DNA of 64,000 nucleotides from an uncultured Gammaproteobacteria bacterium (GTDB taxonomy: Bacteria; Patescibacteriota; Patescibacteriia; Magasanikbacterales; UBA922), in NCBI GenBank assembly GCA_965231005.1, contig OZ246405.1:365877-429876 (forward strand), written 5' to 3'. The notes below the pieces were generated by a model that searched no databases, was not told the origin of the DNA, and was given only the letters and a program-made list of their open reading frames with translations. Position numbers and translations under genes: made by a program. Positions 1-33,843 of this stretch are shown in pieces. Within the stretch, counting starts at the first letter, position 1. Each line of letters opens with the position of its first letter.

Positions 1-85
1 AATATCTAGATTCCAATACATACAAAGAGATTCTTTCACTTACCGAAGAAATATCTAAGATGCTCTGGAAAATCATTAACTAATT

Positions 86-115
86 TGTTAATTGCTAATT
101 GTTAGTTGTTAATTA
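86..115. repeat. Stop-saturated spacer motif family A (TTGTTAATTGCTAATTGTTAGTTGTTAATT), single copy at window start
   Basis: 30-nt A+T motif with TAA/TAG in all six frames. It recurs at 3801-4009, 9963-10140, 21893-22106 and 62066-62096. It sits directly upstream of the G+C-rich operon at 180-1360. Confidence 0.8.
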
Positions 116-3209: not shown

Positions 3210-3307
3210 TTGTCATCTCGAGCGATCAGAGCGAGCCTGCCTGCCGGCAGGCAGGTCGAGAGATCTCTCCACTTCACTCGCTCCTCTCGCTCCGGTCGAG
3301 ATGACAA
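3210..3307. repeat. Palindromic element with CCTGCCTGCCGGCAGGCAGG core (copy 1)
   Basis: Perfect 20-nt palindrome at 3236-3255 inside a longer inverted repeat (TTGTCATCTCGAG ... TCGAGATGACAA). Confidence 0.8.
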
Positions 3308-3800: not shown

Positions 3801-4009
3801 AACAATTAACAAATAACAATTAACAACTTAGTATAGATTACTGTGAAGATTCGCATGTTCTATAGATATTACATACGATTTTTAACTTATCATTCGTTCG
3901 TTATAAAGATTCTATATATTAGATAATAAATAATAAATTTTAGAACCATCCTTATTTTTTAGAAACTTTCTATACGAGTTTGTTAATTGCTAATTGTTAG
4001 TTGTTAATT
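3801..4009. repeat. Family A stop-saturated motif, inverted pair around an A+T-rich spacer
   Basis: Reverse-orientation copy at 3801-3830 and forward copy at 3980-4009. It lies at the junction between the mid-GC cassette and nth. Confidence 0.8.
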
Positions 4010-4610: not shown

Positions 4611-4652
4611 GATTAAATAATATCAGAGAACAAGATTATTATCTACTTCTAG

Positions 4653-4690
4653 TTGACTTAGGAAAAAAAATATGATTTTATATACATCTT
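4653..4690 (+). promoter_or_regulatory. Candidate promoter (TTGACT ... TATGAT/TTTATA)
   Basis: TTGACT at 4653. The -10 assignment is ambiguous. Confidence 0.3.
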
Positions 4691-4709
4691 ATGCACAAAA
4701 GGGGGTGCT

Positions 4710-4952
4710 ATGGACGGAAACGGTGAGCCGCGTTGGCATTTCAGGATGAAAGAGTGTGGAAATAGCGGCATTCTTGTCATCCACGGCGAAGAGATCGAAA
4801 TAAGATCAAAGCAGGAAGGCAACAACATCATGGCTGACAGGTTCAAGATAAGGGATTCGCAAACCGGCGAACTTGGTGAATGGCTTGCTGCTTCTGCTGT
4901 GATCATGGATTCCAGTCTGCCTGATTTTTCTGGGGTGTATGAGGCGCTGTAA
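4710..4952 (+). CDS. Hypothetical protein (80 aa) in a self-contained G+C-rich cassette
   Basis: AAGGGGG RBS. No recognisable domain. Confidence 0.5.
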   Translation: MDGNGEPRWHFRMKECGNSGILVIHGEEIEIRSKQEGNNIMADRFKIRDSQTGELGEWLAASAVIMDSSLPDFSGVYEAL

Positions 4953-4970
4953 GTGGAGTTTCAAGGGGAG

Positions 4971-5035
4971 TCTCTGACCATCATCACGGTGGTCAGAGAA
5001 AAACAAAAAATCTCGATGTGTTCGAGGTTTTTTGT
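4971..5035. terminator. Tandem hairpins, the second followed by a T-run
   Basis: TCTCTGACC...GGTCAGAGA and CTCGA-TGTGT-TCGAG hairpins, then TTTTTTG. Lies between convergent genes. Confidence 0.55.
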
Positions 5036-5047
5036 TTGGTAAAAGGT

Positions 5048-6478
5048 CTATGTTGCAGCAAGAATCTTTTTTCTTGTTGAGATAAATGTGATGAGCGTAT
5101 AAACAAAAATGCTTACGACAAATGGAACTATCGTTGCCCAACCATCAAATGCCTCTGTAAAATAATTATTTTTTATATAAAGTAATGTATTAGGTACCCC
5201 AAAGATAGTAGGAGTTAGGATAAAGAAGAATAGTCGAAGAGCTCCACCAGCAATTATGGAATAGAGTGCAGCAGTTTTGTTGGCAATCCAGAACGTTCCA
5301 AAAGCGAAACACGCAAAGAGTGAACAAAGGACGACGTCGAATGCGAGGGTCAATAGAATTCCTGGTTGTGAAATTCTTAAAGCAGTAATAACACCAATAA
5401 AACCGATGATGATTGTAAAGAATCTAGTATACGTCAACAGTAAATCTTTTCCACTATCAATTTTACTTTTTTTATGGAAAAGGTTTCTTGCTACAAGAGA
5501 AGCCGGTCCCAAAAGTGCTCCATCTGCAGTAGAAAATGATGCTGTAATTATTGCACCTAAGAAAAAGATAACAAGTATTGCAGGAAAGTTGTTTGAAAGA
5601 ATTTCAAACAGACCTGTTTCATTTGTAAAAATGAGTGTTGCTACACCAAACAATGCGAACATACTTCCTATAGTAATAGTTCCTATTCCTCCAAGGAGTG
5701 ATCCTCGCTTTGCATCTTTTGTTGATTTAGCCGCTAAAATTCGTGCAACAAAATCAACTGCAATAACATCGCCAAGACCAAGCGCGAGTATGGTCGCCCA
5801 ATTTATCACTGCTCCGTTGGAAGCAGAAGTAAATTGGCTTAAATCGTAAGCAGTTTCACTTATAAATATTTCTGTTCCAAAATTGCTTATCATGAGAAAG
5901 AGTACACCAATTATTCCGATTAAGAACGTGATAACTTGTATTGGATCGGTCACAACATCAGAGATGAAGCCTCCTGAGTAAGTGTATATGAAGATAAAAA
6001 TAAAACTAAGAATGACTGCTGAAACAAAGCCTATGTTAAAAAGGTTTTCAATGATTTGTCCTACTGCTGCAAGATTTCCAGCTAACAATATAGAAAAGCT
6101 GATAATCATAAGTATGGCAGCCATTCTTTCCACTGTTGTTCCAAATTTTTTTCTAAAATAATCTCCAATAGTAATAATTTTAGCTTTTCGTAGTGGCTCT
6201 GCAAAAAATAATCCTGCTAGAGTCAACGAAATTCCAAGACCAAGTGGTATTGTAAGCGCACTCCAAAATCCAAAGTCACGAGCCAAATGGAACAGACCCA
6301 TAGTGGCATTTCCATCGAGTGCTTGTTCCATTTGTGCAAAAATAACAAAGAAAAATGGTAGTGTGCCTCCAGCAAAAAGGAATTTTTTGCTTGAACCTTG
6401 TATTTTATGAGCAACAAAAATGCTAATTAAAAAAATAACAGATAAATATACTAAAATTCCGATTGCTATTTGAGACAT
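5048..6478 (-). CDS. Polytopic membrane transporter, probably sodium:solute symporter-like
   Basis: 476 aa with about 13 hydrophobic segments. The family call is tentative. Confidence 0.45.
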   Translation of the reverse strand: MSQIAIGILVYLSVIFLISIFVAHKIQGSSKKFLFAGGTLPFFFVIFAQMEQALDGNATMGLFHLARDFGFWSALTIPLGLGISLTLAGLFFAEPLRKAKIITIGDYFRKKFGTTVERMAAILMIISFSILLAGNLAAVGQIIENLFNIGFVSAVILSFIFIFIYTYSGGFISDVVTDPIQVITFLIGIIGVLFLMISNFGTEIFISETAYDLSQFTSASNGAVINWATILALGLGDVIAVDFVARILAAKSTKDAKRGSLLGGIGTITIGSMFALFGVATLIFTNETGLFEILSNNFPAILVIFFLGAIITASFSTADGALLGPASLVARNLFHKKSKIDSGKDLLLTYTRFFTIIIGFIGVITALRISQPGILLTLAFDVVLCSLFACFAFGTFWIANKTAALYSIIAGGALRLFFFILTPTIFGVPNTLLYIKNNYFTEAFDGWATIVPFVVSIFVYTLITFISTRKKILAAT

Positions 6479-6487
6479 AGAGAATAT

Positions 6488-6847
6488 TTATAATATTTCT
6501 TCATCTTCTTCTCTCCAAGCAGGATCAACAATACAGAGAAAAACTAAATCAACATCTCCAGTGTTTTTAATGTATTGCTTTGCATGTGGTGGAATCACAA
6601 TAGCATCTCCAACACCCACAGATTTTTTTTCATCATCAATATACATTTCACCTTGTCCGTCTAAAATGTAGTAGATTTCAGAGGTTGTTAATTTGTGAGC
6701 CTGTGACGTATCCCCAACGTTTACTATTGCGTGGGCAAGACTGTAGCGAAAGTCAACGTCATCCTTATTAGGATGCAAAATTTCTCGCAAACGTGTCCCA
6801 TCACCAGCAATAAATTCTTCACAATGTTCAAGTTTTTTAACTAACAT
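6488..6847 (-). CDS. Cupin-domain protein
   Basis: Small beta-barrel motifs (G.G.MYIDDE..SVGVGDAIVIPP..H). Confidence 0.55.
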   Translation of the reverse strand: MLVKKLEHCEEFIAGDGTRLREILHPNKDDVDFRYSLAHAIVNVGDTSQAHKLTTSEIYYILDGQGEMYIDDEKKSVGVGDAIVIPPHAKQYIKNTGDVDLVFLCIVDPAWREEDEEIL

Positions 6848-6886
6848 ATGGATATTATATATTAGATATTACATTATAGATAATAC

Positions 6887-8197
6887 CTATTCATCTTGAA
6901 TTGCAACGATAGGATTTAGATCGGCTGCTTTTCTTGCAGGATAAAGTCCAAACAGCACACCAACTGCAGTTGAAAATGATACACTTAGGAGAATTGAAAA
7001 TACTGAAATTTTAAATGTCCAGGAAAGTCCTTGATATTGAGCACCAAACGCGATAACTGCCGAAATAAATACACCAAATAAAATTCCAATCAGTCCACCA
7101 AATGCAGTAACAACAACTGCTTCAGTAAGAAATTGATATAAAATATTTTTTCGAGTAGCTCCAACAGCTTTTCGCAGACCAATTTCAAATGTTCTTTCTG
7201 CAACAGATACATACATAACATTCATAATTCCAACACCACCAACGAGTAAGGAAATTGCAGAAAGTGCAACAAGCAGCCATGTGATTCCTAGGATAATGGT
7301 CCCAACAATTTCCAAAGATTCTTCCATTGTGGTAACAGAAAAGTCATCTTTGTCTGGGTCAACAATATCATGACGTTCACGGATTAGCCAGCGGATTTCT
7401 TCTGCCGTTGTCTCGGCAAGACTATTATCAACAGTCTGGGCAACAATCCAAATAACATGATCCACACCCATAATTTTTTTCTGCGCAGTTTTTAATGGAA
7501 TATAGACGAGCCCGTCCATGTCAAAAAATCCAGTTGCTCCTAATCGTTCCATAACACCTACAACCTCATATGCTTTTCCTTCAACTTTTATAAATTTTCC
7601 TGCTGGATCTTCATTTCCAAAAAGTGTGTCAGCAACTGTTGCTCCTAAAACAATGACTTGTGCTGCAGATTGTTCTTCTGCTTCTGTATAAAATCTTCCA
7701 GACTTTGGATTGCCTTTGCTAATTTCAAAGTATGATGGAGTCATGGCAAAGACGCTTGGCCGCATTTTTTCTGTTCCATAAGATGCAACAACCTGTGTTG
7801 TAATTCCAGCATATGCATTTCCTACATTGTCTAGTCGCTCAATCGCTTGCTTATCTTTTGATGTAAGTGTTGTAATACTCACGCCGCGAGCGATTCCTGA
7901 TGCATTATCAAACGAGGCTTTTCCAGTAGAAGGAACTTTTATTTCAATGTTTATCCAATCATCACCAAAAGATGAGAGTTCATCCAATATTATTCCACGC
8001 AATCCGTTCCCTGCAGACAGAACAATAATCACCATTCCAATCCCAATCATGATGCCAAAAACGGTAAGGAAACTTCTTATCTTGTTCTTTTGGAATGTAT
8101 CAAGCGCAGATGAAAATACTGCCTGCCAATGCCGTTTTTTGTGATGGGGGATTGTAAATATTTTTTTCAATTTTTTACTCATATCGAAGTGCATCAA
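6887..8197 (-). CDS. ABC transporter permease (MacB/FtsX family)
   Basis: N-terminal TM, large periplasmic domain and a C-terminal FtsX-like four-TM bundle (ERTFEIGLRKAVGA). Confidence 0.8.
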   Translation of the reverse strand: MMHFDMSKKLKKIFTIPHHKKRHWQAVFSSALDTFQKNKIRSFLTVFGIMIGIGMVIIVLSAGNGLRGIILDELSSFGDDWINIEIKVPSTGKASFDNASGIARGVSITTLTSKDKQAIERLDNVGNAYAGITTQVVASYGTEKMRPSVFAMTPSYFEISKGNPKSGRFYTEAEEQSAAQVIVLGATVADTLFGNEDPAGKFIKVEGKAYEVVGVMERLGATGFFDMDGLVYIPLKTAQKKIMGVDHVIWIVAQTVDNSLAETTAEEIRWLIRERHDIVDPDKDDFSVTTMEESLEIVGTIILGITWLLVALSAISLLVGGVGIMNVMYVSVAERTFEIGLRKAVGATRKNILYQFLTEAVVVTAFGGLIGILFGVFISAVIAFGAQYQGLSWTFKISVFSILLSVSFSTAVGVLFGLYPARKAADLNPIVAIQDE

Positions 8198-9401
8198 TAG
8201 GATTCAATTTTGCTGCTTTTCTTGCTGGGACAATACCAAATATTAAGCCAATTGCTGTTGCAACACTAAGCGCGGCAACAATCGAAGCAGGTGAAATAAT
8301 AAATGAGTAATCATATCCAAGTGCTTGGACAATTTTTGCTATCAAAAATGAAATAATCACTCCAAGTAAAATGCCAATAATTCCGCCAACAATGGAAATA
8401 ACGATTGTCTCAGCTAAAAATTGAGTAAGAACATTTTTACTTGTTGCGCCTACGGATTTTCGCAACCCAATTTCCTTTGTTTTTTCTTTCACCGCAATTA
8501 ACATGATATTCATAATCCCAACACCGCCAACAAAAAGTGAAATTGCTGCAACTGCTACAAGAAAGAATTTTAAAGAATTTGTAATTGTTGTTAAGACGCT
8601 GAGTAAATCTTCAGTATTACGAATAGAAAAATCTTCATCATCATGTCGTTCAGTAAGTGTTTGTCGGATTTCCTCAATACTTTGACGGAGATATTGTTCA
8701 TCATCAATTCTAATTCGCAAAAAAGACACATGCCGAACACCAAGCAAATCACGTTGTGCTGTTGTAAGAGGGATTAATACTGCATTATCTAAATTTTCAA
8801 ATCCACTTGATCCTTTTTCTTTTAACACACCAATCACCTTGAATTGTTTTTTCTTTAACTTTACTGATTCGCCAATGGGATATTGATTTCCAAATAATTC
8901 TTTTGCTATTTCCGCACCAAGTACCATAACACGTGCACGCCCAGCTTCTTCACCTTCAGAAAAAAAACGTCCTTGATCCATTGTTCCTTTTTCTTGTTCA
9001 AGATAACTTGGGTTTGTTCCCGTATATGTCACTGCCCGTTCAACGTTTTGCCATTTTAAGATGTCATTTCCAGAAATATAGCTTGTAACAAGTCGAACAT
9101 GCTGTGCATTGTGCTTGTCGAGCAGTGCTTTTCCATCTTCATCAGTTAATGTTGTTACAACAATTCCAAGTGCTTGTGCAGGAGGTCCATTTTCTTCTGC
9201 AGCACCAGCAAGAACAGCAATTTGATCTGTGCCGCGTCGTTGAATTTGATTTGTTATAAGACTTTGTGCTCCTGCACCAACAGACATAACCAACACAACA
9301 GAAAGAATGCCAATAATAAGACCAAGCATCGTGAGCATTGTTCGTCTTCTATTTGTATGCAAATTGTCCCATGCAATTTTTATTGTTTCTTTTGGTTGCA
9401 T
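8175..9401 (-). CDS. ABC transporter permease (MacB/FtsX family), paralog
   Basis: Same architecture (EKTKEIGLRKSVGA). Overlaps the downstream permease start. Confidence 0.8.
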   Translation of the reverse strand: MQPKETIKIAWDNLHTNRRRTMLTMLGLIIGILSVVLVMSVGAGAQSLITNQIQRRGTDQIAVLAGAAEENGPPAQALGIVVTTLTDEDGKALLDKHNAQHVRLVTSYISGNDILKWQNVERAVTYTGTNPSYLEQEKGTMDQGRFFSEGEEAGRARVMVLGAEIAKELFGNQYPIGESVKLKKKQFKVIGVLKEKGSSGFENLDNAVLIPLTTAQRDLLGVRHVSFLRIRIDDEQYLRQSIEEIRQTLTERHDDEDFSIRNTEDLLSVLTTITNSLKFFLVAVAAISLFVGGVGIMNIMLIAVKEKTKEIGLRKSVGATSKNVLTQFLAETIVISIVGGIIGILLGVIISFLIAKIVQALGYDYSFIISPASIVAALSVATAIGLIFGIVPARKAAKLNPIDALRYE

Positions 9402-9405
9402 AATA

Positions 9406-9433
9406 TTGACAAAATCAAATTTTTTGGTACACT
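9406..9433 (+). promoter_or_regulatory. Sigma70-like promoter TTGACA-N16-TACACT
   Basis: Consensus -35 with an acceptable -10, 38 nt ahead of the AAGGGGG RBS. Confidence 0.5.
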
Positions 9434-9470
9434 AATCTGGCTCACGCAACAACGAATAAAAGGGGGAAAT

Positions 9471-9905
9471 ATGATCATTTTTCACCACTCCAATTCAAGT
9501 GTTAGAAGAATGGTTCTGAGAAATCTGGTTCGGAATCATGAGGGGCGAGCAGGTGTTGAGCCGGGTCAGTATGACATCCATGTTGCCGAAACAGAAGAGG
9601 AAGCTCTTGAGCTGGTTGAGCAAGGAATGCACACTGAAGCAACCACGATTCTCATTTCCAATCATCAGTCACGGAATAATCAACTCAGAAGTAAGGTGAA
9701 GAGCCTCGACACCGCTTGCATCACGATTGCCTTCTCCGCGATCCGTGTGCCTGCAGACGAGCGGCCATTCACTGACCTGGGCTTCAATGGGGACCCCACG
9801 GAGCAAATCGGTCTACTCGTCGGCTTCATGCTGCGTTTCCACTCAACAACGTCCACAGCACTCGAGTTGGAAGGGGAATATTCCTGGATTGTGGCAGTCA
9901 AATAG
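9471..9905 (+). CDS. Hypothetical protein (144 aa) with a pseudo-receiver-like N-terminal fold pattern
   Basis: AAGGGGG RBS. The beta-alpha periodicity (IIFHH ... DIHVAETEEEALELVEQ ... TTILIS) resembles a REC domain that lacks the phospho-acceptor Asp. Confidence 0.45.
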   Translation: MIIFHHSNSSVRRMVLRNLVRNHEGRAGVEPGQYDIHVAETEEEALELVEQGMHTEATTILISNHQSRNNQLRSKVKSLDTACITIAFSAIRVPADERPFTDLGFNGDPTEQIGLLVGFMLRFHSTTSTALELEGEYSWIVAVK

Positions 9906-9962
9906 TCTCGGACAAAGGGAGGTTCCTTGCGTGTTCATATCTATGCGCACGCAAGGATATGA

Positions 9963-10140
9963 ACAACTAAAAAAATTAACAACTAACAATTAACAACTAA
10001 CAATTAACAAGTTTTGATAAAATAATCCAATCTAATACCTTGAACAACATTGAGTGTTATAGTAATTCATTGAAGTACTCCTACAAATAAATAAACATTC
10101 TCTACTAAGTTGTTAATTGCTAATTGTTATTTGTTATTTA
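9963..10140. repeat. Family A stop-saturated motif, inverted pair around a spacer
   Basis: Reverse copy at 9963-10010 and forward diverged copy at 10110-10140. Confidence 0.8.
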
Positions 10141-10212
10141 GAACTCCACAAGCTTCTGTCTTTTTCTGGCATTATGACACACGTGGAAGCAATCATCCTG
10201 TACAGGATTTTT

Positions 10213-10932
10213 TTATTTTTGTAATGTACTATTTTTTGCTGCTCGTTGGTGACCATTTTTTTTATCACTTTCAATTTTTCCATCACGCAGAAACAATATT
10301 CTTCTTGCGTGTTCTGCAGTATCTTTTTCATGTGTTACCATGATTACTGTTCGTCCTTTATCATTTATTTCTTGCAAAATTTGAAGAATCTGATTTCCAG
10401 TTTTGGAATCAAGGTTTCCTGTTGGCTCGTCTGCAAACAAGATATGAGGATCGTTTACAATTGCGCGCGCAATTGCAACACGTTGTTTTTCCCCTCCAGA
10501 AAGTTGATTTGAAAAGTTATTTTTTCTATGTGAAAGTCCAACAGCTTCTATAGCTTTTTCAACAGCTTCTTTATCATTTGGATGATCACTATATACAAGT
10601 GGCAAACGAACATTATCATACACAGATGTTCGGGGGAGAAGGTTAAAGGATTGAAACACAAAGCCAATATTTTTATTTCTCATCTGTGCAAGTTGCTCAT
10701 CAGAAAAATTACTCACGTCCTTTCCTTCAAATTTGAATTTTCCACTCGTAGCAGTATCTAAAAAACTCATAATATGCATGAGTGTAGATTTCCCAGATCC
10801 ACTTGGTCCCATGATTGCAACAAATTCTCCTTTTTCAATGCTTACATCGATATGATGAAGAACCGGCGTAACAATTTCGCCGGTGACATATTCTTTGTAT
10901 AAGTCTTTTATGTCTATGAGTGAGGCTGACAT
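10213..10932 (-). CDS. ABC transporter ATP-binding protein (MacB/LolD-like)
   Basis: Walker A GPSGSGKST, signature LSGGEKQRVAIARA and Walker B ILFADEPTGNLD. Confidence 0.9.
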   Translation of the reverse strand: MSASLIDIKDLYKEYVTGEIVTPVLHHIDVSIEKGEFVAIMGPSGSGKSTLMHIMSFLDTATSGKFKFEGKDVSNFSDEQLAQMRNKNIGFVFQSFNLLPRTSVYDNVRLPLVYSDHPNDKEAVEKAIEAVGLSHRKNNFSNQLSGGEKQRVAIARAIVNDPHILFADEPTGNLDSKTGNQILQILQEINDKGRTVIMVTHEKDTAEHARRILFLRDGKIESDKKNGHQRAAKNSTLQK

Positions 10933-10941: not shown

Positions 10942-12771
10942 CTATTTTTGTTCTTTGATAAACGTGATGATTTCATCGCCCTCGGCAACTCCAGAGAGTA
11001 TTTCAATTAATCCATTGTCTCCACGGATACCATCGGTGACTTCTTTTTTATCAAATTCTGCTTTTTCTTTGTTTGTTAAAATTCTGATATATTTTTTCCC
11101 ATCTTCTCTAATAATCGATCGTTGTGGGACAATCAAAACATTATCTTTTGTGTCGGTTATAATCTGAAGATTTGCTGTCATTCCAGATCGTATAGGAAGA
11201 TCTTTTGTATCTGTAAATACAATACCTGTCTTGTAATAAATAACACCAGACACTTCTGTTTCTCCAGGTTCAATTGAAATAACTTTTCCAGCAAGTTCGA
11301 TTTCATCACCAAACGCATCGAGTGTAATCATGACTTTGTCATCAATACTTATTTTTGCAATATCTGATTCTGAAATGTCGACTTCTATACTCTTTTCTGC
11401 AGATACAAGTGTCACAATTGGATCGAGTGCAGTAACATTTTCACCAACCGACACATCAATTTTTGCAACGACTCCATCTGCAAGTGCTTTCAAAATAGTT
11501 TTATCTAATTCATGTTGTGCAGATTGGACATTTGCTTTGTTTTTATTTACATCGGCACGTGCAGTTCCTAGATCTACATCTCGAGGTCCTGCTACAAGGG
11601 AGTCATATGCTGCTTGTGACTGTCGCACATTTGCCTCTGCAATATCTATATCTGCTTGGGATTTTGTTTTTGTATTTTCAAGATCAAGCACAGCCTTGTC
11701 ATAGGCAATTTGATATCCAGAGAGACTATTTTTTGCTGTTGTTACTGCTTGAACATCGTTTGTAAGATTTGTGCTTGCAGTATTAACCGTTGTAAGTACA
11801 GTATTGATATTACTTTTGAGTGTATTCAATTCGGTTTGAGAAAGATCCAATGCAACATTGGCAGAATTTAGCATATTCTGCATATCAAGAAGATGTGATT
11901 GAGTATCTGAGATAAGTGATTTTATTGAAGGAGTAACATCATCGACATCTTTGTGTGGGCTGGCACTTTTGAGAGCAAATACTGTGGTTGAGTATTTGTC
12001 TTTTGAGTCTCTTGTTTGTCTATAACTATCTTGTGCAGTACTCAGTTTGGTTGCATCAGCATTATTAATGCCTTGCTCAAAGGCATCATTTGCTCCTGCA
12101 TTATCAATTCCAAGAATATTGTCAGATTCTGTTAGTGCATCTGAAACAGCAGTAATAGAAGATTTTAATGTGTTGATAAGATCATCGTAAGCATTATTTA
12201 CAATCTCACTATTGTCTCCTCCAGATGCAAGTTGTAAATTATTTTTTGCAGTATCAACTGCTTTTTCAGCAGCAAACACGTCTGAAGATGCAGTTGCTTT
12301 TACTTTTTCTAATGTTGCTTTTCGTTGGTCAACAAGGGCGAGTGCTTCGAGTTTGTCTTCGTTTGTTGCACCTGCAAGTTTTAAATTAAGCGCGGCTTCT
12401 GCCGATTTTAACTGTGCGACTGCTTGTGCAAGAGAACTTCGCTGCTTTACATTTTGTAGTTCTGCAATAATATCACCTTTTTTTACCTCTGCCCCTGCTA
12501 TTTTGCTTATATTTGCGACTCGTCCATTTATTTCCCATCCATATGAAATATCAAGTTCACCAGAAACAGAGCCTGTTTCACTTACAGACTGTACAAGTGT
12601 TGTTTTTTCAACAATCGTTGAAGAGATTTCTGCTTTTCCTTTGTCTCCTCCTCTTGAAAACACAAAAATAATCAACAAAATGATTATTGCGACAATCCAG
12701 AATTTTTTTGATTTAAGTAAAGCCATAATAAAATACGCTTTTAGTGTAGCGCATTTTTTGGGAACAATCAA
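10942..12771 (-). CDS. Efflux periplasmic adaptor (HlyD/MacA-like membrane fusion protein)
   Basis: N-terminal TM, long coiled-coil-rich middle and a C-terminal beta-barrel. The start may be the internal Met at 12726. Confidence 0.6.
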   Translation of the reverse strand: MIVPKKCATLKAYFIMALLKSKKFWIVAIIILLIIFVFSRGGDKGKAEISSTIVEKTTLVQSVSETGSVSGELDISYGWEINGRVANISKIAGAEVKKGDIIAELQNVKQRSSLAQAVAQLKSAEAALNLKLAGATNEDKLEALALVDQRKATLEKVKATASSDVFAAEKAVDTAKNNLQLASGGDNSEIVNNAYDDLINTLKSSITAVSDALTESDNILGIDNAGANDAFEQGINNADATKLSTAQDSYRQTRDSKDKYSTTVFALKSASPHKDVDDVTPSIKSLISDTQSHLLDMQNMLNSANVALDLSQTELNTLKSNINTVLTTVNTASTNLTNDVQAVTTAKNSLSGYQIAYDKAVLDLENTKTKSQADIDIAEANVRQSQAAYDSLVAGPRDVDLGTARADVNKNKANVQSAQHELDKTILKALADGVVAKIDVSVGENVTALDPIVTLVSAEKSIEVDISESDIAKISIDDKVMITLDAFGDEIELAGKVISIEPGETEVSGVIYYKTGIVFTDTKDLPIRSGMTANLQIITDTKDNVLIVPQRSIIREDGKKYIRILTNKEKAEFDKKEVTDGIRGDNGLIEILSGVAEGDEIITFIKEQK

Positions 12772-14324: not shown

Positions 14325-14353
14325 TTGACAAATAATTTTTATTATGATAGAAT
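14325..14353 (+). promoter_or_regulatory. Sigma70-like promoter TTGACA-N17-TAGAAT
   Basis: Near-consensus hexamers at ideal spacing, ahead of the AAGGGGG RBS. Confidence 0.55.
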
Positions 14354-14397
14354 TTTTGCTGTTCGTTTTTTGCGGACCAGAACACAAGGGGGTTTAC

Positions 14398-14625
14398 ATG
14401 AGGATTTTGCGTTTCATTGTACTACAGGTCAGACGACCAAGGGCAAAGCAGAGAGCCTACGATCGAGTCATCATCATGATCCGGGACCGTCGATTCGATG
14501 ACACGACGGTTCAGAACAGGCTTATCGACTACAAGTACATGGTCAATGGTGATCACGACATGCCTGCAGGCTTGGTTCAGACGGTTCGACTTCATCGACC
14601 ACACCTGGCTTTTGCGTTGCAGTAG
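14398..14625 (+). CDS. Hypothetical basic protein (75 aa)
   Basis: AAGGGGG RBS and a G+C-richer segment. An antisense ORF at 14422-14682 lacks these signals. Confidence 0.45.
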   Translation: MRILRFIVLQVRRPRAKQRAYDRVIIMIRDRRFDDTTVQNRLIDYKYMVNGDHDMPAGLVQTVRLHRPHLAFALQ

Positions 14626-14721
14626 TGCTTCAACAACATCTTTCATCTGTGTCCGAGGTCTTACGATCTCGGGCGTACTCAAAAGCAGCTTTTACAAAGG
14701 GCTGTTTTTGATTTTTAAAAA

Positions 14722-18180: not shown

Positions 18181-18206
18181 AACCCGGCCTTTTGGCCGGG
18201 TTTTTG
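18181..18206 (+). terminator. Rho-independent terminator
   Basis: AACCCGGCC-TTTT-GGCCGGGTT hairpin followed by a T-run. Confidence 0.75.
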
Positions 18207-18305
18207 TTACGACTCTTTATTATTCTTTTGCAAAAAATAGTAAAGAGTCGCCCACCGTCTTTCGTTGGTAGGCGACGGTGGAAGGCCTATGTCTGCGAGT
18301 TGCTT

Positions 18306-18665
18306 TTATGACAACAATCTGGGGAGAAAATCGCGAAGCTCAGGTTTCTCGCTTACGTGCGTGCAGCCTCTTTGCAGCTGTTGTGCACGTACCTCAGAAT
18401 CAGACGACACTCCGATGATGGGACCTGAGAACTTGACCACGTCGAGGAGATGACGAAGCAGTGCAAATGATTCATCTGTTTCTTCGCCGATGTACCCGTC
18501 CAGGACAACTGCCCAGGGAGGTTTTGGCAATGAACGCAGAATCGCACGTGCTTCTTCATATCCAGCAACGAAGACCGGTTCAAAGTCCTTTCCGAGTGCG
18601 ATCCTCAGAAGTGCGAGCCAGCGGTCTTCATCTTCGAGGATCAGGATGGTTGGTTTGTCTTGCAT
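18306..18665 (-). CDS. Stand-alone response-regulator receiver (CheY-like REC) protein
   Basis: ILILEDED acidic pocket, VVLDGYIG phospho-acceptor Asp, GVSSD and a SEKP Lys-Pro motif. The start lies 2 nt after the upstream stop. Confidence 0.65.
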   Translation of the reverse strand: MQDKPTILILEDEDRWLALLRIALGKDFEPVFVAGYEEARAILRSLPKPPWAVVLDGYIGEETDESFALLRHLLDVVKFSGPIIGVSSDSEVRAQQLQRGCTHVSEKPELRDFLPRLLS

Positions 18666-18667
18666 CT

Positions 18668-19288
18668 CTACTTCTCGACCGTGTACGGGAAGGCCCAGTA
18701 CTTCGGAACCTTGAGATCCATGGAGAGGTTGCTCGTCATGTGGATGCCGAACTTGCCATCCGTTGGGTTGAAGCTGATGTGTGGCATTTTCCCGCATTCG
18801 AGCTGTTCGTGAAGCGCGTAGAGCCGGGTCTTCTTTGGATCCAGTCCGGTCTTCTTTTGTGCGTCGTCCGTCCGCCAGGTGTACTGGTAGAAGCTGAGCA
18901 GCGCAGAGAAGTTGAGCGGCTTGCCCTTCTTGTACGCGATGTACTCGGCGACCTGCTTCAGCGTGGTCGTTGAGTTATTGGTTGTGTAGATCTTCACGTC
19001 CTTGATCGATCCGTGTTTTTCGGAGAAACAGCCGCCTTGCAGTTGCTTGTAGAATCCATCCCAGTGCGACAGGTCGAGTGCTTCGATGCGCTCAAGCAGA
19101 GCCAGGCCGTTAGTGTGCTTGGGCACGTCGGTCTTGGCGGTCGTGTCCTTGCTCACGGACGCGTCAGCATGGGAGCCGGCGTCGGAGTTGGTGAGCAGGT
19201 TGTCGTCCAGTGTCGGGCAGTCGTCAGCGCAGCCAGTGCTGGTGATCAAGAACATGGCAAGGAAAATCGCGGTTGCAAAGTGTTTCAT
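18668..19288 (-). CDS. Lipoprotein, function unknown
   Basis: Signal peptide plus ITSTGC lipobox. AAGGGGG RBS. Confidence 0.55.
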   Translation of the reverse strand: MKHFATAIFLAMFLITSTGCADDCPTLDDNLLTNSDAGSHADASVSKDTTAKTDVPKHTNGLALLERIEALDLSHWDGFYKQLQGGCFSEKHGSIKDVKIYTTNNSTTTLKQVAEYIAYKKGKPLNFSALLSFYQYTWRTDDAQKKTGLDPKKTRLYALHEQLECGKMPHISFNPTDGKFGIHMTSNLSMDLKVPKYWAFPYTVEK

Positions 19289-19409
19289 GGTATACCCCCT
19301 TAGGTCACTGCACGGTTGGTTAAAAGTCGGTTGTTGAAAGTCCGTGCGGTGTCTACAAGGGGCTATGGTTAAAAGAGCGTGTACTTATTATATCGAAATA
19401 AGATAGCTA

Positions 19410-19438
19410 ACAATAGCAAAATATCAATTTTTTGTCAA
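19410..19438 (-). promoter_or_regulatory. Sigma70-like promoter TTGACA-N17-TATTGT (minus strand)
   Basis: Sits within a roughly 130-bp module that is duplicated at 20340-20480. Confidence 0.5.
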
Positions 19439-19569
19439 GGCTTAGATATAAAATCAAAAAAACACCTAATTTAAGATGTTTTTTTGAACCATCCCCCGAG
19501 CATCACACATCAGCATTATCCCTAGGGGATGGTGTTGCGTGTGTCGGAGGGTGAACTCCTTGGTTGTTG

Positions 19570-20301
19570 TCAGTGCAGCGGTTCGATGGTGAACCATTCG
19601 CTGTCGTGTTTGTCCAGCACGATCTCCATCTCTGTGCCGACCTTGTCCCAGCTGTTCTCGTGATCTCGGAACAAAACCTGCACTGGAACAACGTCCTTGT
19701 ACAAAGGCGTGGTGTGCAGGCGAATGACCGCAGGACCTCCCACGGTGTACATGCTGAACTCCAGCTTGCCGCCGCAGATGACCTCTCCGATCGCCATGGG
19801 CTTGCCGTTGCAGGCATCGACCGGGTAGCTGTTGACCTTGCCAGAGCGGGCGCTCAGGGTGACGTTCTTCGGGCAGGTGATGAACACGTTGCCCATTGCC
19901 ATCCAGAGCTCGCGCTCGTTCTTCGGATCGGTGTTGTTTTGCATCAGGTGGCAGGTCTTGTAGGTCGGTTCGGAGTCGATCTTGGTGCTTGTCGCCTGCT
20001 CCTTGTCAGTGCACGGCGATGTGCTGCCGAGGTTGACGTGCTGGTCGCTGGCGCAGCCGCCCATGAACAGGGTAACTACGATGCCAGCGGCGACCGCAGT
20101 CCGACCGATCGGCGCAGCTGATTGCTTCTTCTCCAACCGGTTCAGCTTGACCAAGATGAGCGACAGGCCCACCGAGATTTCGAGCAAGAAAACGAAAATT
20201 AGCAGCATTGTGATATTTCCGCTCCTCTGTAGTTCAAATACGGTGAACCCACCAGCAAACAAGATAAGAAAAAAATGCGATATAGAAAGGATTCGTTCCA
20301 T
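19570..20301 (-). CDS. Membrane-anchored protein with two N-terminal TM helices, function unknown
   Basis: AAGGGGG RBS. TM segments followed by a Cys-containing extracytoplasmic domain. Confidence 0.55.
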   Translation of the reverse strand: MERILSISHFFLILFAGGFTVFELQRSGNITMLLIFVFLLEISVGLSLILVKLNRLEKKQSAAPIGRTAVAAGIVVTLFMGGCASDQHVNLGSTSPCTDKEQATSTKIDSEPTYKTCHLMQNNTDPKNERELWMAMGNVFITCPKNVTLSARSGKVNSYPVDACNGKPMAIGEVICGGKLEFSMYTVGGPAVIRLHTTPLYKDVVPVQVLFRDHENSWDKVGTEMEIVLDKHDSEWFTIEPLH

Positions 20302-20399
20302 GTTGTACCCCCTTGAATGAGCGCGCCAGGGTGACGCGGTCGGTCCAAGGGGTTACAACAAAAAGAACATACTTCTATTATACGAAATAGAAACAGCTA

Positions 20400-20428
20400 A
20401 ATATAGCAAAATGTTAATGTTTTGTCAA
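20400..20428 (-). promoter_or_regulatory. Sigma70-like promoter TTGACA-N17-TATATT (minus strand), duplicate of the 19410-19438 module
   Basis: About 80 percent identical by eye to the 19357-19500 region. Confidence 0.5.
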
Positions 20429-20556
20429 GGGTAAGGTATAAAATCAAAAAAACACCTATTTTAAGATACCTATAAAAAAGCATAAACCCCGCAACGCGAT
20501 GTCACGAGGCTATGCCTTGTGCGCGTGCGGGGTGGTTGACTTGTGTCGTCTCCTTG

Positions 20557-21741
20557 TTATTTTGGTTCGATGCTCAGCTTCACCATTCTCATCAAGCATC
20601 TGGTCTTGCCTGCCCATTTGCAGTTCGCTTTGACCGGAAGGATGATACGTCCCTTTTTGGCAGAGACAAGGTCTGCTGTTACAGAACCGTTTGAATGGTC
20701 TCGAATTGTCCCATTCCAATTTTCGTAGTGTCGGCAAGTACCGCTGCTACCACAGTTTGATCCGAGTTTAACTGTCACAAAGCGTGGTGCGTACTTGTTT
20801 GTTCCTTCCACATCCATCCGAAACGAAAGAGTTGTGGTGATGTTTGTGGGGAATTTTCCAAGTCCAGGACAGCGAATGTTTGGGACTCTCCTATCTGCTC
20901 CGCCAGCTGGAAATTGGATGTCAGGGATTTTCATGTTTTTGCATCCAACAGCTTCCGGGACTTTTACTGCCGGCAGTGTGAGTAGGTAGTTCCCTTTGTA
21001 GGAAGTGATGAACCGGATTTGTGCTTGTGGAGCAATCACATCGCCAGGCTTCCACCCTCGTGCAGGTTTGGAATTGATCGTTCGTTTGCAGATCATCTTT
21101 CGGGCAGTTGTGTGCGAGAGCGAGAGCGGAGGCTTTCCTGGATCTGTTGCATTTTTGAGCTCTCCTTTGCATGTCATGTTGCTCAGCTCCCGCCTTTTGA
21201 TTTGATGCAATTTGCAATCTTTGTATGGAAATCTGATCACACAGTAAGCACTGATCACCAGTTCAGACAAGATTGACTCTCCTGCAACAGGAGATGTACT
21301 TTGACCACTTGCCTCGATGATTGCACCATGTTTTTTTTCTGCACGGACGCATTTTTTCCATGCATCGGTCACATGTGGAGGAAGATATCTCCTTTCTACC
21401 ATGAGCTTTCCAATGTCAGTGGTCCTTCTTCGTGCAGCTTCACACATGATCTTTGCAACAGATTCGTAGTTGGAGCGTTTCGACGACTGACTTCCGCCAA
21501 TGTCTGCGTAGTGGAGTTGTGCCTTTCTGTCTGACCAGCTGTCCCTGATTCGTGTGTATTTCTTGCATTGTTTTTGGTACCATGCAAGGCTCTTGTTCCA
21601 GGCGCTATTGTTGACTTGAGTGCTTGCACCGTAGATCAGGATTTTTTCGCAGTGATCAGGTGGGCTTGCAACTGCGGGTGATCCGAACAAGAGTGACATG
21701 CTCGCAATGAACATGAAGATCCGAGACAAAAAAAATCGCAC
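20557..21741 (-). CDS. Secreted cysteine-rich protein (394 aa), function unknown
   Basis: GTG start preceded by GGAGGA. N-terminal signal peptide and more than 20 Cys residues. Confidence 0.5.
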   Translation of the reverse strand: MRFFLSRIFMFIASMSLLFGSPAVASPPDHCEKILIYGASTQVNNSAWNKSLAWYQKQCKKYTRIRDSWSDRKAQLHYADIGGSQSSKRSNYESVAKIMCEAARRRTTDIGKLMVERRYLPPHVTDAWKKCVRAEKKHGAIIEASGQSTSPVAGESILSELVISAYCVIRFPYKDCKLHQIKRRELSNMTCKGELKNATDPGKPPLSLSHTTARKMICKRTINSKPARGWKPGDVIAPQAQIRFITSYKGNYLLTLPAVKVPEAVGCKNMKIPDIQFPAGGADRRVPNIRCPGLGKFPTNITTTLSFRMDVEGTNKYAPRFVTVKLGSNCGSSGTCRHYENWNGTIRDHSNGSVTADLVSAKKGRIILPVKANCKWAGKTRCLMRMVKLSIEPK

Positions 21742-21787
21742 TGTGTCCTCCGTGCTGAAATGGATGGGATTGTGGTGAAACCATTTG

Positions 21788-21876
21788 GCTTCACTCGCGG
21801 AGAGAGCGGGATTTGAACCCGCGAGCCCTTTGCAGGACTACTGCTTTTCGAAAGCAGCGCATTCAACCAGACTCTG
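21788..21876 (-). tRNA. tRNA-Ser (anticodon CGA)
   Basis: Hand-folded cloverleaf: GGAGAGA acceptor, CTGCT/AGCAG anticodon stem with loop TTCGAAA, long variable arm, GCGGG-TTCAAAT-CCCGC T-arm. Confidence 0.8.
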
Positions 21877-21892
21877 CCATCTCTCCATAATG

Positions 21893-22106
21893 ACAATTAG
21901 CAATTAACAAAAAACAATTAACAATTTTTTCATCACGACAAACAATATTTTCAGCTTTTAGATGTCGCAGATAACTATCTTTGGTGAAGAAATACAACCG
22001 CCAGCAGTATCAGGATTCGTTCATTATCTTTTTGTAAGATTAAGTAACGGAATAAGAGTTTGTTAGTTGTTAATTGTTAGTTGTTAGTTGTTAGTTTTCT
22101 ATCAAT
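21893..22106. repeat. Family A stop-saturated motif, inverted pair around a spacer
   Basis: Reverse copy at 21893-21924 and forward tandemised copy at 22069-22106. Confidence 0.8.
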
Positions 22107-23342: not shown

Positions 23343-23465
23343 AGTTTGTTTATTGTATCTATGTTTTTTGGAAAAGTCTACAAAAAAATCCCGACAGGCG
23401 AGATGCTTTTGTGGTTCCGGATTGCGTGCAATCCGGTACCTTTCACGGGCTGGTGAGGTGTGCGT

Positions 23466-23879
23466 TCAGTGGAGGGATTGTTCTTCTCTTTCGACAAATG
23501 CGTCTGCATGATCTGGCGTCCAAAGCATTGCTTCTTCACCTTTCAGTGTGTAGACAAGTGCTTCTGGCCACCTTCTCATTGCTGCGGTTGCCATCTCAGC
23601 TAGACCTGGTTTGGCACCAGGATTGGACCATTCGCGAGGTGTAATCAAGCGTTCTCTGGCAAGTCGGTGTCGTTCTTCTTTGGGCATGAATACATACTCT
23701 TTGTTGTATCCGCAGCCCTTTGCTGTTCTCGTGTAGATTTCGACTTGGAGTCTGCCAAACATCATGTGTTCATCAAAAATGACGACGAGTTTGACCCAAG
23801 GATGCTCTCGGTCGTAGCGTGAGTACGTGTGCAAAAAAATTGAAGCTTCAATCACCTTGCGTTCGTTTACTGTTGGCAT
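23466..23879 (-). CDS. Hypothetical protein (137 aa) in a G+C-richer cassette
   Basis: GGAGG RBS. An AAAGGGGG motif sits in the leader. Confidence 0.45.
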   Translation of the reverse strand: MPTVNERKVIEASIFLHTYSRYDREHPWVKLVVIFDEHMMFGRLQVEIYTRTAKGCGYNKEYVFMPKEERHRLARERLITPREWSNPGAKPGLAEMATAAMRRWPEALVYTLKGEEAMLWTPDHADAFVEREEQSLH

Positions 23880-23930
23880 GGTTGCCTCCAGTGTGAGAGT
23901 TCGTGAAAGGTCTTCCCCCTTTCTATGGGA

Positions 23931-23959
23931 ACACTACCCTAATTTTTGGAAAAAGTCAA
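23931..23959 (-). promoter_or_regulatory. Candidate promoter TTGACT-N17-TAGTGT (minus strand)
   Basis: Hexamers at 17-nt spacing upstream of the 23879 start. Confidence 0.35.
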
Positions 23960-23961
23960 CC

Positions 23962-25458
23962 TCAAACCTTAAGTTTTAGCACACTTTTAAGCGTCTCTTT
24001 TGAAATCGCGCCAGTTAAAATAACCATGATTCCATAAATTCCTGCACCAAGAATTGCAAGTGCAATAACATGAAGATTTGGAAGAAGTAATACAATTACT
24101 GCCATAACAATGGCAGAGAAAAATAATTTAAATAATGTTCTATAATCAAGAATTTCGTTTGTGTAATGTCGTATAACAAGAAAGAGAAAGAGTCCTGCAT
24201 AGACTTCTGAGAAAACTGTTACCCATGCTGCTCCATACATACCAAATTTTGGAATGAAAATGAGATAGGCAATTAAAGAAAGAATTGCATTTGAAATGTA
24301 GACCCACATGGTTTGTTTTTGTTTATCAATTGCAACAGCTGTGTGTCCAAATATTGCGCCAAAGAATACGCCAAATACTGCAAGCGACAAAATTTGGAGT
24401 GGTCTTCCTGCGGCAATAAATTCATTACCAGCAACAAAGGCGATAATTGGTTCTGCAAGAATGATTGTTCCAATTGTGACAGGAATTGCAAACAACATCA
24501 TTGCATCAAACGCTTGCTGATATTGTTGTTTAAATTGTTTTTTATTGTTTCGTGACCACGCAAATGCAAGCAGAGGCAAAATAACTCCCATCATCATCAT
24601 GGCTGTTTGACCGAGGATGTCTATGACACGATAGGCTGCACCGTACAGTCCAACTTCTTCAAATTTTTGAAACCATGAAAGCAAAATAACATCACCACGC
24701 AAATACACAACATTGAAAATAATTGAAATAGCAATTGGCCAGGATTTTTGCATAATTGATTTCCAAATGTGCCAGTCAAATGCAAAGCGAATTTTCGTTG
24801 TTCGTGATGCAGCAGCCCACATGAAGAGCACATATCCAATGCTCGAGAGTCCAACAACAATCATGACTGGAACAAATCCATATTGACCTGTAATCATGAG
24901 CCATAATCCTGCAACAAGAATAATTCTTCCAATAACTTCTCCTGCTGCTTGAACATGCATTTGTAATCTTGTTTGGTAATAGCCAACAAACACTTGGTTC
25001 ATTGCTATTGCAAGAAATGAAATGGTCAAAAGTGCAATTGCATGTTTCACTTCAATAGGATAGGGAAAGAACAGTGCAACCAGTGGCGCTAGTGTAAGGA
25101 AAAATGTTGCGGTTACAAATCGGAATCCTAATAAATTTTTTAACAGTGTTTCTTTATTATATTTTTGCTCGCTCAACATTTGTGCAGTGACTGGTGTCAT
25201 TCCAAAGTCAATCAAAATACCAATAAACTGCAAAAAAGAAATTGCTGTAATATACCATCCAAATTGAGATACACCTAAGTATCTTGTCATCATGCCAATA
25301 GCAATTAAACCAAAAATAGTTGAGATTGCTTTCCCAACGATTTGAATGGCTGTATTGTGTGCGACTTTTCTTGTTGATTCCACAGTTTTTACATTAAAAA
25401 AATAGAACACAGATTTAACGCCTGCCTGCCGGCAGGCAGGGATCAGACGGATTTTCAC
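23962..25458 (-). CDS. Polysaccharide biosynthesis flippase (MOP/Wzx-like)
   Basis: 498 aa with about 14 TM helices. Confidence 0.55.
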   Translation of the reverse strand: MKIRLIPACRQAGVKSVFYFFNVKTVESTRKVAHNTAIQIVGKAISTIFGLIAIGMMTRYLGVSQFGWYITAISFLQFIGILIDFGMTPVTAQMLSEQKYNKETLLKNLLGFRFVTATFFLTLAPLVALFFPYPIEVKHAIALLTISFLAIAMNQVFVGYYQTRLQMHVQAAGEVIGRIILVAGLWLMITGQYGFVPVMIVVGLSSIGYVLFMWAAASRTTKIRFAFDWHIWKSIMQKSWPIAISIIFNVVYLRGDVILLSWFQKFEEVGLYGAAYRVIDILGQTAMMMMGVILPLLAFAWSRNNKKQFKQQYQQAFDAMMLFAIPVTIGTIILAEPIIAFVAGNEFIAAGRPLQILSLAVFGVFFGAIFGHTAVAIDKQKQTMWVYISNAILSLIAYLIFIPKFGMYGAAWVTVFSEVYAGLFLFLVIRHYTNEILDYRTLFKLFFSAIVMAVIVLLLPNLHVIALAILGAGIYGIMVILTGAISKETLKSVLKLKV

Positions 25459-27487: not shown

Positions 27488-27600
27488 TAGAACACGGATT
27501 GAACACCTGCCTGCCGGCAGGCAGGGATGTAACGGATTTTTACGGATCTAATCTGTTTAGATCCGTTTAATCCGTTGGATCTGTGTTCTATTCAGTACTA
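27488..27600. repeat. Palindromic element (core CCTGCCTGCCGGCAGGCAGG) with TAGAACACGGAT/ATCTGTGTTCTA inverted ends
   Basis: Core at 27506-27525. Homologous to 25403-25506. Begins immediately after the SpoIID-like stop codon. Confidence 0.75.
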
Positions 27601-29936: not shown

Positions 29937-29965
29937 TTTACAACGTAGGGAAAGTCTTGTAGGAT
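29937..29965 (+). promoter_or_regulatory. Candidate promoter TTTACA-N17-TAGGAT
   Basis: Hexamers at 17-nt spacing, 25 nt before the GGAGGTG RBS. Confidence 0.4.
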
Positions 29966-29989
29966 ATGGTTACCTACGTGGAGGTGATC

Positions 29990-30482: not shown

Positions 30483-30494
30483 ACATTTTTTTAT

Positions 30495-33839: not shown

Positions 33840-33843
33840 AGTC

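Follow-up and report, generated by a model that had tools for sequence, protein, structure and literature searches.

Within the type VII ABC systems (MacAB, YknXYZ, and LolCDE types), a MacB-type efflux operon is recognized by genes for an HlyD-family adaptor, a cognate ABC ATPase, and permeases containing MacB_PCD and FtsX domains. In E. coli MacB, the ATPase and the permease are fused in one chain. Receiver domains that lack the phospho-acceptor Asp or act independently of phosphorylation, such as the KaiA N-terminal pseudo-receiver, RitR, and HP1043, have a CheY-like (beta-alpha)5 fold. Heptameric repeats in intergenic DNA have been described in Xanthomonas, Nostoc, and Calothrix, with some copies in inverted pairs and some within operons (PMC4692102). 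The locus described here combines features of known kinds: an accessory gene inserted in an operon, a putative pseudo-receiver, and heptameric intergenic repeats.

A gene set of this kind was found on the minus strand of the stretch of DNA that was analyzed (64,000 nucleotides; here called the window), and the order adaptor, ATPase, permease, permease, which an initial annotation had read from the sequence, was confirmed by Pfam. The first gene was annotated as encoding an HlyD/YknX-type membrane-fusion adaptor of 609 amino acids (positions 10942 to 12771; Pfam HlyD_3, E = 9e-11, and HlyD_D23), with a faint YknX_C match in precomputed annotation. It is followed by an intact gene for an ABC transporter ATPase of 239 amino acids (positions 10213 to 10932; Pfam ABC_tran, E = 1e-36) and by genes for two permeases with MacB_PCD and FtsX domains, namely, an intact permease 1 of 408 amino acids (positions 8175 to 9401) and permease 2 of 436 amino acids (positions 6887 to 8197), with MacB_PCD matches at E = 8e-43 and 2e-36. 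MacB_PCD-FtsX permeases, a cognate ATPase, and an HlyD-family adaptor together identify a MacB-type (type VII) ABC efflux operon; in contrast to MacB, and like LolCDE, it has a separate ATPase gene and two paralogous permeases. The core genes had their closest named relatives in Candidatus Magasanikbacteria, Parcubacteria, and Peregrinibacteria, and the host is therefore, on this sequence affiliation, placed in the candidate phyla radiation (Patescibacteria). This lineage is generally regarded as lacking an outer membrane. Background GC content of the genome was approximately 36 to 38%, and core-gene GC3 was approximately 0.20 to 0.25.

The operon differs from MacAB, YknXYZ, and LolCDE in carrying an insertion at the exact point where the ATPase and permease genes meet, a junction that as a rule is tight for translation: among 63 more distant homologous operons (≤51% identity), the median junction length was 12 bp, with 53 of the 63 junctions at ≤150 bp and only 2 longer than 400 bp. 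An interruption at this point had already been proposed, and 811 bp were found there, from the ATPase stop to the permease 1 start (positions 9402 to 10212). The earlier extent, positions 9406 to 10140, is slightly too narrow for the inserted unit. Syntenic operons of close relatives were contiguous, as an insertion predicts. These relatives were found by a search with permease 1 and are closer than any in the species-representative genome set. Where permease 1 was 82% identical (orthologue P0003, 408 amino acids, present on at least 24 contigs from several samples), the junction was 10 bp (AAATAG AGTCTTTTGC ATGGA), and where it was 74% identical (orthologue P0004, 408 amino acids), the junction was 1 bp. 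The relatives share the synteny of NUDIX, adaptor, ATPase, permease 1, permease 2, endonuclease III (nth), and DsbD genes, and the adaptor and permease 2 were syntenic in the 82%-identical relative (L205). Because the ATPase (239 amino acids versus 240 in L205) and permease 1 (408 versus 408) are intact, the insertion was a precise intergenic event; no target-site duplications were seen at the insert ends when these were compared by eye with the relative's junction. GC content was 0.49 to 0.50 in the insert (0.49 at positions 9501 to 10000) versus approximately 0.36 in the flanks. Positions 9402 to 10212 are a derived, lineage-specific insertion into an ancestrally contiguous operon.

The window represents natural metagenomic DNA, and for the insert an assembly artifact is excluded by the agreement of three assemblies from two runs (ERR2281800 and ERR2281801), which were 100% identical throughout the insert (contigs L001, L002, and L004). 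The ATPase at positions 10213 to 10932 was present residue for residue on the ENA MEGAHIT contig ERZ930065 (run ERR2281800, project PRJEB17505), as well as on Logan contigs of ERR2281800 and ERR2281801, and a 1.23-Mb NCBI contig carries the same proteins. A fourth contig (L003) stops within the right arm of the repeat pair described below, and two Logan contigs end in or just past the repeat arms (positions 10118 and 10142), as expected of repeated DNA. In an exact look-up on public contigs, the gene carried by the insert was found in the source samples only and in constant context, with no alternative flank or circular form.

Similar departures in composition were found elsewhere in the window, which holds approximately 12 GC-rich islets (GC content, 0.45 to 0.55; GC3, 0.44 to 0.80) among core genes; most of these islets encode orphans. 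Annotated island genes included those for a pentapeptide-repeat protein (positions 35021 to 35542), a Dicty_CTDC repeat protein (positions 43815 to 45824), and a phosphoglucomutase (positions 60498 to 61988), and the island genes were not paralogous to one another. GC-rich islands occupy the same hot spots in relatives, namely, those following rpoC, ruvC, and pnp. One relative has the Dicty_CTDC gene in synteny, with 36% protein identity and yet a GC3 of 0.76 in both genomes, and high GC content is therefore no proof of very recent arrival. The inserted gene is not singular; it is one of approximately 12 GC-rich genes that each bring a ribosome-binding site and a consensus promoter.

The sole long open frame of the insert, termed ORF144 (positions 9471 to 9905, plus strand), is predicted to encode an orphan protein of 144 amino acids. 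It was the best scoring of the six frames, and its codon-position GC content of 0.57/0.39/0.54 (GC1 > GC3 > GC2) resembled that of other island genes. The open frame and its codon composition, together with the promoter and Shine-Dalgarno motifs described below, give moderate support to ORF144 as a putative protein-coding gene. On the other side, gene calling on the ENA contig (L001) and on one Logan contig (L002) left ORF144 out, and a third gene caller gave a version of 131 amino acids. A word-indexed search of 5.8 billion clustered proteins and an exhaustive phmmer search of 1.84 billion representatives each returned only ORF144 itself (the 131-amino-acid call). No match was found in Pfam, PHROGs, NCBIfam, PADLOC, or PDB sequences or in phage DNA, plasmids (tblastn), or IMG/VR; no RNA family was detected in the insert (Rfam, E ≤ 1), and no paralogy was found with the receiver protein at positions 18309 to 18665 or with other island ORFs. 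ORF144 is a true orphan, absent from every relative.

The plus-strand promoter, AAGGGGG ribosome-binding site, and 144-amino-acid frame named in the initial annotation were all found in the sequence. The sigma-70-type promoter-like site (TTGACA-16 nt-TACACT; positions 9406 to 9433, plus strand) matches the consensus at 10 of 12 positions, with TTGACA at positions 9406 to 9411, TACACT at positions 9428 to 9433, and a TG upstream of the latter (TG-n-TACACT, an extended −10 element). The −35 element sits 4 nt from the ATG of permease 1, which is on the opposite strand. Sites of the form TTGACA-N16-18-TAnnnT occurred 10 times in the window versus 3.6 expected (reached in 0 of 100 shuffles), and 6 of the 10 were directly upstream of GC-rich island genes. 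Within the 1.4-kb AT-rich stretch around the insert, promoter-like matches numbered 4, versus 4.1 expected in shuffles. No sigma-70-like promoter was detected on the minus strand at positions 9000 to 10400. The Shine-Dalgarno-like AAGGGGG (positions 9460 to 9466, plus strand) lies 4 nt before the ORF144 ATG at position 9471, and the same heptamer also precedes the island genes at positions 18668 to 19288 and 19570 to 20301. Shine-Dalgarno-like motifs were found at 6 of 9 island genes versus 2 of 26 host (core) genes (Fisher test, P = 0.0012).

The product of ORF144 was modeled with AlphaFold2 without an alignment (mean pLDDT, 48; pTM, 0.48; residues 76 to 144 mostly below 50). The element order in this low-confidence model was beta-alpha-beta-alpha-beta-alpha-beta-alpha-alpha-beta. 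Its top Foldseek match in the PDB was the KaiA N-terminal pseudo-receiver 1m2e (E = 0.026; probability, 0.96; TM score, 0.36), followed by flavodoxin-like folds and receiver domains, and no PDB match was found at E ≤ 0.001. No receiver was found for ORF144 by Pfam profiles or by phmmer against PDB sequences, in either case even at E ≤ 10, and BLASTP against CheY gave E = 0.87. A MAFFT alignment with CheY (the CheY sequence having been entered by hand) was collinear and paired His5-His6 with Asp12-Asp13, Asn64 with Asp57, and Ser88-Ala89 with Thr87-Ala88. No equivalent of Lys109 is present, and no Lys occurs from residue 76 up to the C-terminal Lys144. Among the receiver motifs, the acidic pair, the acceptor Asp, and the Lys are missing, and the Ser-Ala pair after beta4 (S88-A89) alone is kept; the absence of the phospho-acceptor Asp, which had been noted from the outset, was upheld by Asn64 at that position.

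ORF144 most likely adopts a CheY-like (beta-alpha)5 fold without the acidic pocket, the acceptor Asp, and the conserved Lys, as judged from the model. It would share this predicted fold with the KaiA N-terminal pseudo-receiver, RitR, and HP1043 (1m2e; 4lzl, 2hqr), which were among the best structural matches of the low-confidence model, and it resembles atypical receivers in having Asn at the acceptor position, as depositors describe for those. It differs from the three proteins in standing alone at 144 amino acids, with no output domain and no detectable sequence relationship, as well as in lacking the acidic pair and the Lys and in having a fold taken from a low-confidence model. A pseudo-receiver is the best available reading of ORF144, plausible but unproven from the model. 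If functional, the protein would work by protein-protein contacts, as a pseudo-receiver that does not depend on phosphorylation.

A genuine receiver protein had been reported elsewhere in the window at positions 18306 to 18665, and fold and motifs supported this assignment for positions 18309 to 18665. Its model (pLDDT, 72) had 40 Foldseek matches at E ≤ 0.001, almost all of which were receiver domains (TM scores, 0.62 to 0.70), and it keeps the motifs E11/D12, D56, S87/S88, and K107-P108; Pfam misses the receiver domain in this protein. The suggestion that ORF144 is a potential regulatory partner of this protein was not borne out: no link was found between the two genes, which are 8.4 kb apart in different islands, and BLASTP between their products gave E = 0.024 over a noncollinear stretch.

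Downstream of ORF144, two kinds of inverted repeats were found. A GC-rich hairpin with 16-nt arms (inverted repeat I5; positions 9924 to 9957) begins 19 nt past the ORF144 stop, with minimum free energies of −20.4 kcal/mol on the plus strand (z = −4.6) and −19.2 kcal/mol on the minus strand (z = −5.5) and no U-tract on the plus strand. It is followed by a repeat pair of the family termed A, with a left arm of five heptads (TTAACAA/CTAACAA; positions 9976 to 10010, plus strand) and a right arm of four heptads (TTGTTAA/TTGCTAA; positions 10110 to 10137, minus strand) inverted relative to the left; the arms are 33 nt long, 85% complementary, and 93 nt apart. The initial annotation had described a pair of family A spacers after the ORF; the pair is present, but the "spacers" are genome-specific heptameric foldback repeats. 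The family A 21-mer occurred in 17 copies in the window at ≤3 mismatches, versus 0.01 expected. An A7 run (positions 9969 to 9975) precedes the left arm and, on the operon strand, forms a U7 directly after the 3' arm of the foldback; since the stem before this minus-strand U7 is an AU-rich foldback of 33 bp whose interior spans 93 nt, the structure does not qualify as a canonical intrinsic terminator, and a consensus scan of positions 9000 to 10400 found none. Folding of the region gave −52.2 kcal/mol for positions 9900 to 10160 on the plus strand (z = −3.6) and −77.1 kcal/mol for positions 9900 to 10215 on the minus strand (z = −3.4). A weak hairpin, ATCCTGTACAGGAT, followed by T7AT5, overlaps the ATPase stop (positions 10195 to 10220, plus strand) and was considered as a plus-strand terminator, a candidate that was rejected at a fold of −3.7 kcal/mol, no better than shuffles; it possibly marks the end of the plus-strand unit, as a weak call.

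Heptads of at least three families were found in the window (A, xTAACAA; B, TTAGAAA/TTGGAAA; C, TAGTTAy). Arrays of period 7 numbered 19, versus 0 to 5 for periods 4 to 11, and all of them were intergenic and downstream of gene ends, nearly all as inverted pairs. Exact 7-nt units, intergenic location, and overrepresentation are the features of heptameric intergenic tandem repeats. The heptads resemble the heptanucleotide repeats of Calothrix and Nostoc and the GGGAATC repeats of Xanthomonas in being period-7 tandem units restricted to intergenic DNA (PMC4692102), and they differ in being AT-rich (TTAACAA, TTAGAAA, and TAGTTAy) and nearly always arranged as inverted pairs that form foldbacks. 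No quadruplex is possible for these heptads, because they are AT-rich and not G-rich. The foldbacks are a variant of the known intergenic heptameric repeats. Each heptad contains TAA or TAG on both strands, so that within three units every one of the six frames meets a stop.

In two relatives, L205 (permease 82% identical) and L211 (YebC 72% identical), no heptad repeats were found in the 21 kb analyzed of each, and the relatives use ordinary GC-hairpin-plus-T-run terminators at the corresponding places. Between yebC and ruvC, which in a relative have 2 bp between them, lies the repeat pair at positions 46792 to 46889. Because of this absence and this split, the foldbacks are genome-specific insertions or expansions. 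They are independent of the GC-rich islands, although, by hand tally, 9 of 11 foldbacks in the window adjoin an island. A metagenome scan for three consecutive xTAACAA heptads gave at least 120 matches and was uninformative on origin; among 80 of these loci that were inspected, nearly all were single tandem arrays in unrelated contigs, with one inverted pair, and two viral contigs carried only single xTAACAA arrays.

Together, a promoter-like site abutting the permease start, a Shine-Dalgarno site, ORF144, and then hairpins make up one complete unit oriented antisense to the operon. A transcript from the adaptor and ATPase genes would first meet the foldback with 33-bp arms and its U7, next the −19.2 kcal/mol hairpin, and would then cross 435 nt antisense to ORF144 before reaching the convergent promoter. 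Permease expression would probably be attenuated or dependent on read-through and open to interference from this promoter; dependence on read-through is suggested because the foldback, hairpin, and antisense stretch lie on the path and no minus-strand sigma-70-like promoter was found within the insert. Points against a strong polar effect are the AU-rich foldback with its 93-nt interior, the lack of a canonical site in the terminator scan, and the intact state of both permease genes, which argues for continued expression of, and need for, the permeases. The proposed decoupling of permease transcription from that of the ATPase may follow from the hairpins, and expression of the inserted unit, attenuation by it, and any signaling role are likewise put forward from sequence features.

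We consider it probable, with some reserve, that a complete antisense accessory unit was inserted, that its orphan is likely an Asp-less receiver-like protein, and that permease expression is probably attenuated. An unlikely alternative is that the insert is a functionless foreign fragment, in which ORF144 is a fortuitous or decaying frame and the promoter- and Shine-Dalgarno-like motifs are incidental. The lack of any homologue or family match for ORF144 in the databases searched would fit such a fragment, as would the two of three gene callers that skipped the frame, the low model confidence, and promoter-like matches at shuffle level in the 1.4-kb AT-rich stretch (4 versus 4.1). However, chance is unlikely to yield an open frame of 144 codons at 50% GC, and this frame has coding-like codon-position GC content, the best score of the six frames, and a regular (beta-alpha)5 predicted secondary structure. 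Its perfect −35 element with an extended −10 element is of a class that five other island genes share and that is enriched overall in the window (10 versus 3.6), and AAGGGGG with appropriate spacing is found again before two other island genes, in a genome whose core genes lack Shine-Dalgarno motifs. Somewhat less probable is that ORF144 encodes a real protein with another flavodoxin- or Rossmann-like alpha/beta fold and no relation to two-component signaling, for example a small enzyme or a binding module. As a caveat on the pseudo-receiver reading, the model may just show the alpha/beta arrangement most often given to such a pattern; no alignment can be built, and a common fold may thereby have been imposed.

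The unit had been called a cassette, a term that holds for a self-contained unit but not in the integron sense. An integron-type gene cassette, in which ORF144 and an attC-like folded site formed by the family A pair would have entered at a secondary site, is very improbable and was rejected, with no attC core sites (GTTRRRY or RYYYAAC) at positions 9960 to 10150 and, in a Pfam scan of the 29 larger ORFs of the window, neither an integrase nor a transposase family. An imperfect inverted repeat approximately 160 bp long does follow ORF144, and similar inverted pairs follow other foreign-looking genes (positions 3806 to 4007, 21897 to 22094, and 62069 to 62235), but the unit has its own promoter, the same repeats occur between core genes with no foreign gene nearby (yebC-ruvC), and the GC-rich islands of relatives lack heptad repeats. 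Least credible is an ancestral gap that was deleted in relatives or an assembly chimera. In its favor, no same-species strain with an empty site was found, but the operon is contiguous in the 82%- and 74%-identical relatives and has short junctions (≤150 bp) in 53 of 63 distant operons from many lineages, the composition of the insert is foreign to the genome, and every base of the insert is the same in the three assemblies of the two runs. The locus is a clean, datable case in which a complete foreign-type gene unit entered a tightly coupled operon for a transporter, in a symbiont with a reduced genome, and broke no reading frame. If expressed, the unit would provide a natural test of the effect of convergent transcription and foldback repeats on the subunit stoichiometry of an ABC pump.

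Of wider importance than the ORF144 protein may be the genome-wide pattern of GC-rich genes that have ribosome-binding sites and consensus promoters within an AT-rich genome. The protein for now adds to the orphans, its pseudo-receiver fold being plausible but unproven; the pattern could help separate accessory from core genes in genomes of the candidate phyla radiation and trace the origin of orphans. A broader and doubtful proposal is that ORF144 is one visible member of a distinct accessory gene pool in this clade of the candidate phyla radiation, made up of GC-rich, mostly orphan minimal units (perfect TTGACA promoter, Shine-Dalgarno site, and hairpin) that enter intergenic hot spots and even tight operons. 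If this were true, the cell would run two translation-initiation regimes, with AT-rich core genes lacking Shine-Dalgarno sites; antisense accessory units would be switches on core operons, here tuning the ATPase-to-permease stoichiometry of the efflux pump; and the heptad foldbacks would serve as insulators by virtue of their stops in each of the six frames.

The ATPase-permease junction is prone to insertions in the candidate phyla radiation. Operons from Staskawiczbacteria (L037) and Buchananbacteria (L022) also carry a short opposite-strand ORF between the ATPase and permease 1 genes, and, as read by eye, each of these ORFs is preceded by a Shine-Dalgarno site and by a TTGACA promoter that adjoins the permease ATG. 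Unlike ORF144, to which they are unrelated, these ORFs encode hydrophobic (membrane-like) products of 55 and 67 amino acids and are not accompanied by heptad repeats.

At the corresponding junction in locus L056, a GIY-YIG-like gene, read by eye, is flanked by inverted repeats. The junctions in loci L030 and L041 hold 2 to 3 kb of unrelated same-strand genes.

GC-rich genes were dispersed as islets among AT-rich core genes. About a dozen islets were found in the window (for example, at 129-1400, 18201-21900, 23351-23950, 29951-30500, 34051-35650, 43801-45950, and 58701-62050), with GC3 values of 0.44 to 0.80 compared to 0.20 to 0.25 in core genes. Many islets carried a predicted perfect TTGACA promoter and a Shine-Dalgarno-like (SD) site of their own, whereas core-gene starts in the same genome were AT-rich and SD-less or leaderless. 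In the window, SD-like motifs were more frequent upstream of island genes (6 of 9) than upstream of core genes (2 of 26; P = 0.0012). The same hot spots were occupied by other GC-rich genes in relatives.

The efflux operon was bordered at its opposite end, between the permease 2 and endonuclease III genes, by a second lineage-specific block (4611-6886), which contained a GC-rich islet (4658-4952) and genes for a sodium:solute symporter (5048-6478) and a cupin (6488-6847). The spacing between permease 2 and endonuclease III was 7 bp in the relative with 82% permease identity. Short antisense ORFs at the ATPase-permease junction were a recurrent architecture, found in two other candidate phyla radiation (CPR) lineages as minus-strand, opposite-strand hydrophobic ORFs of 67 aa (Staskawiczbacteria locus L037, 5690-5893) and 55 aa (Buchananbacteria locus L022, 5745-5912). 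By visual inspection, each had a TTGACA promoter against the permease ATG, plus an SD site. This recurrence is possibly meaningful.

The minus-strand gene at 18309-18665 encodes a stand-alone receiver domain that retains the full set of ED, D56, SS, and K-P motifs. Its AlphaFold model (pLDDT, 72) had 40 Foldseek matches, nearly all of them to receiver domains; Pfam gave no receiver match for this protein. The 3.7-kb GC-rich island carrying the gene adjoins a tRNA-Ser gene. Two neighboring island genes, both with a GC3 of 0.8, share a 132-nt direct repeat (19346-19477 and 20336-20467; 74% identical) that duplicates their promoter and leader sequences together with the AAGGGGG motif.

Immediately 3' of rpoC, a plus-strand gene (43815-45824) encodes a Cys-rich Dicty_CTDC repeat protein. 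Its counterpart in the relative with 72% YebC identity (L211, 7780-9738) was syntenic and only 36% identical, with a GC3 of approximately 0.75 in both genomes. The gene either evolves fast or has been replaced, and its GC-richness is maintained.

Period-7 (heptad) arrays of three families, nearly all arranged as inverted pairs that form foldbacks, were located at the 3' ends of genes in the window (85-112, 3806-4007, 9976-10137, 21897-22094, 33842-33979, 34887-34920, 45955-46066, 46798-46891, 60328-60419, and 62062-62232). Every unit contained TAA or TAG on both strands, so the arrays stop all six frames. One inverted pair separated yebC and ruvC. The arrays were absent from the 21 kb examined in each of two relatives (82% permease and 72% YebC identity).

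On the plus strand at 14325-14700, a consensus promoter (TTGACA-N17-TAGAAT) preceded a GC-rich islet of 350 nt that lacked a convincing ORF and gave no Rfam match at an E value of ≤1; this islet may specify a novel small RNA or short protein. The palindrome CCTGCCTGCCGGCAGGCAGG occurred four times in the window (3231-3255, 25416-25440, 27501-27525, and 59255-59279), with two copies inside a 62-nt repeat (89% identical) flanking the gene at 25601-27487. Long Asp/Glu-coding repeat runs of 9- to 15-nt periodicity (31240-31600 and 33058-33260, minus strand) were contained in the gene for an 866-aa protein (31239-33839).
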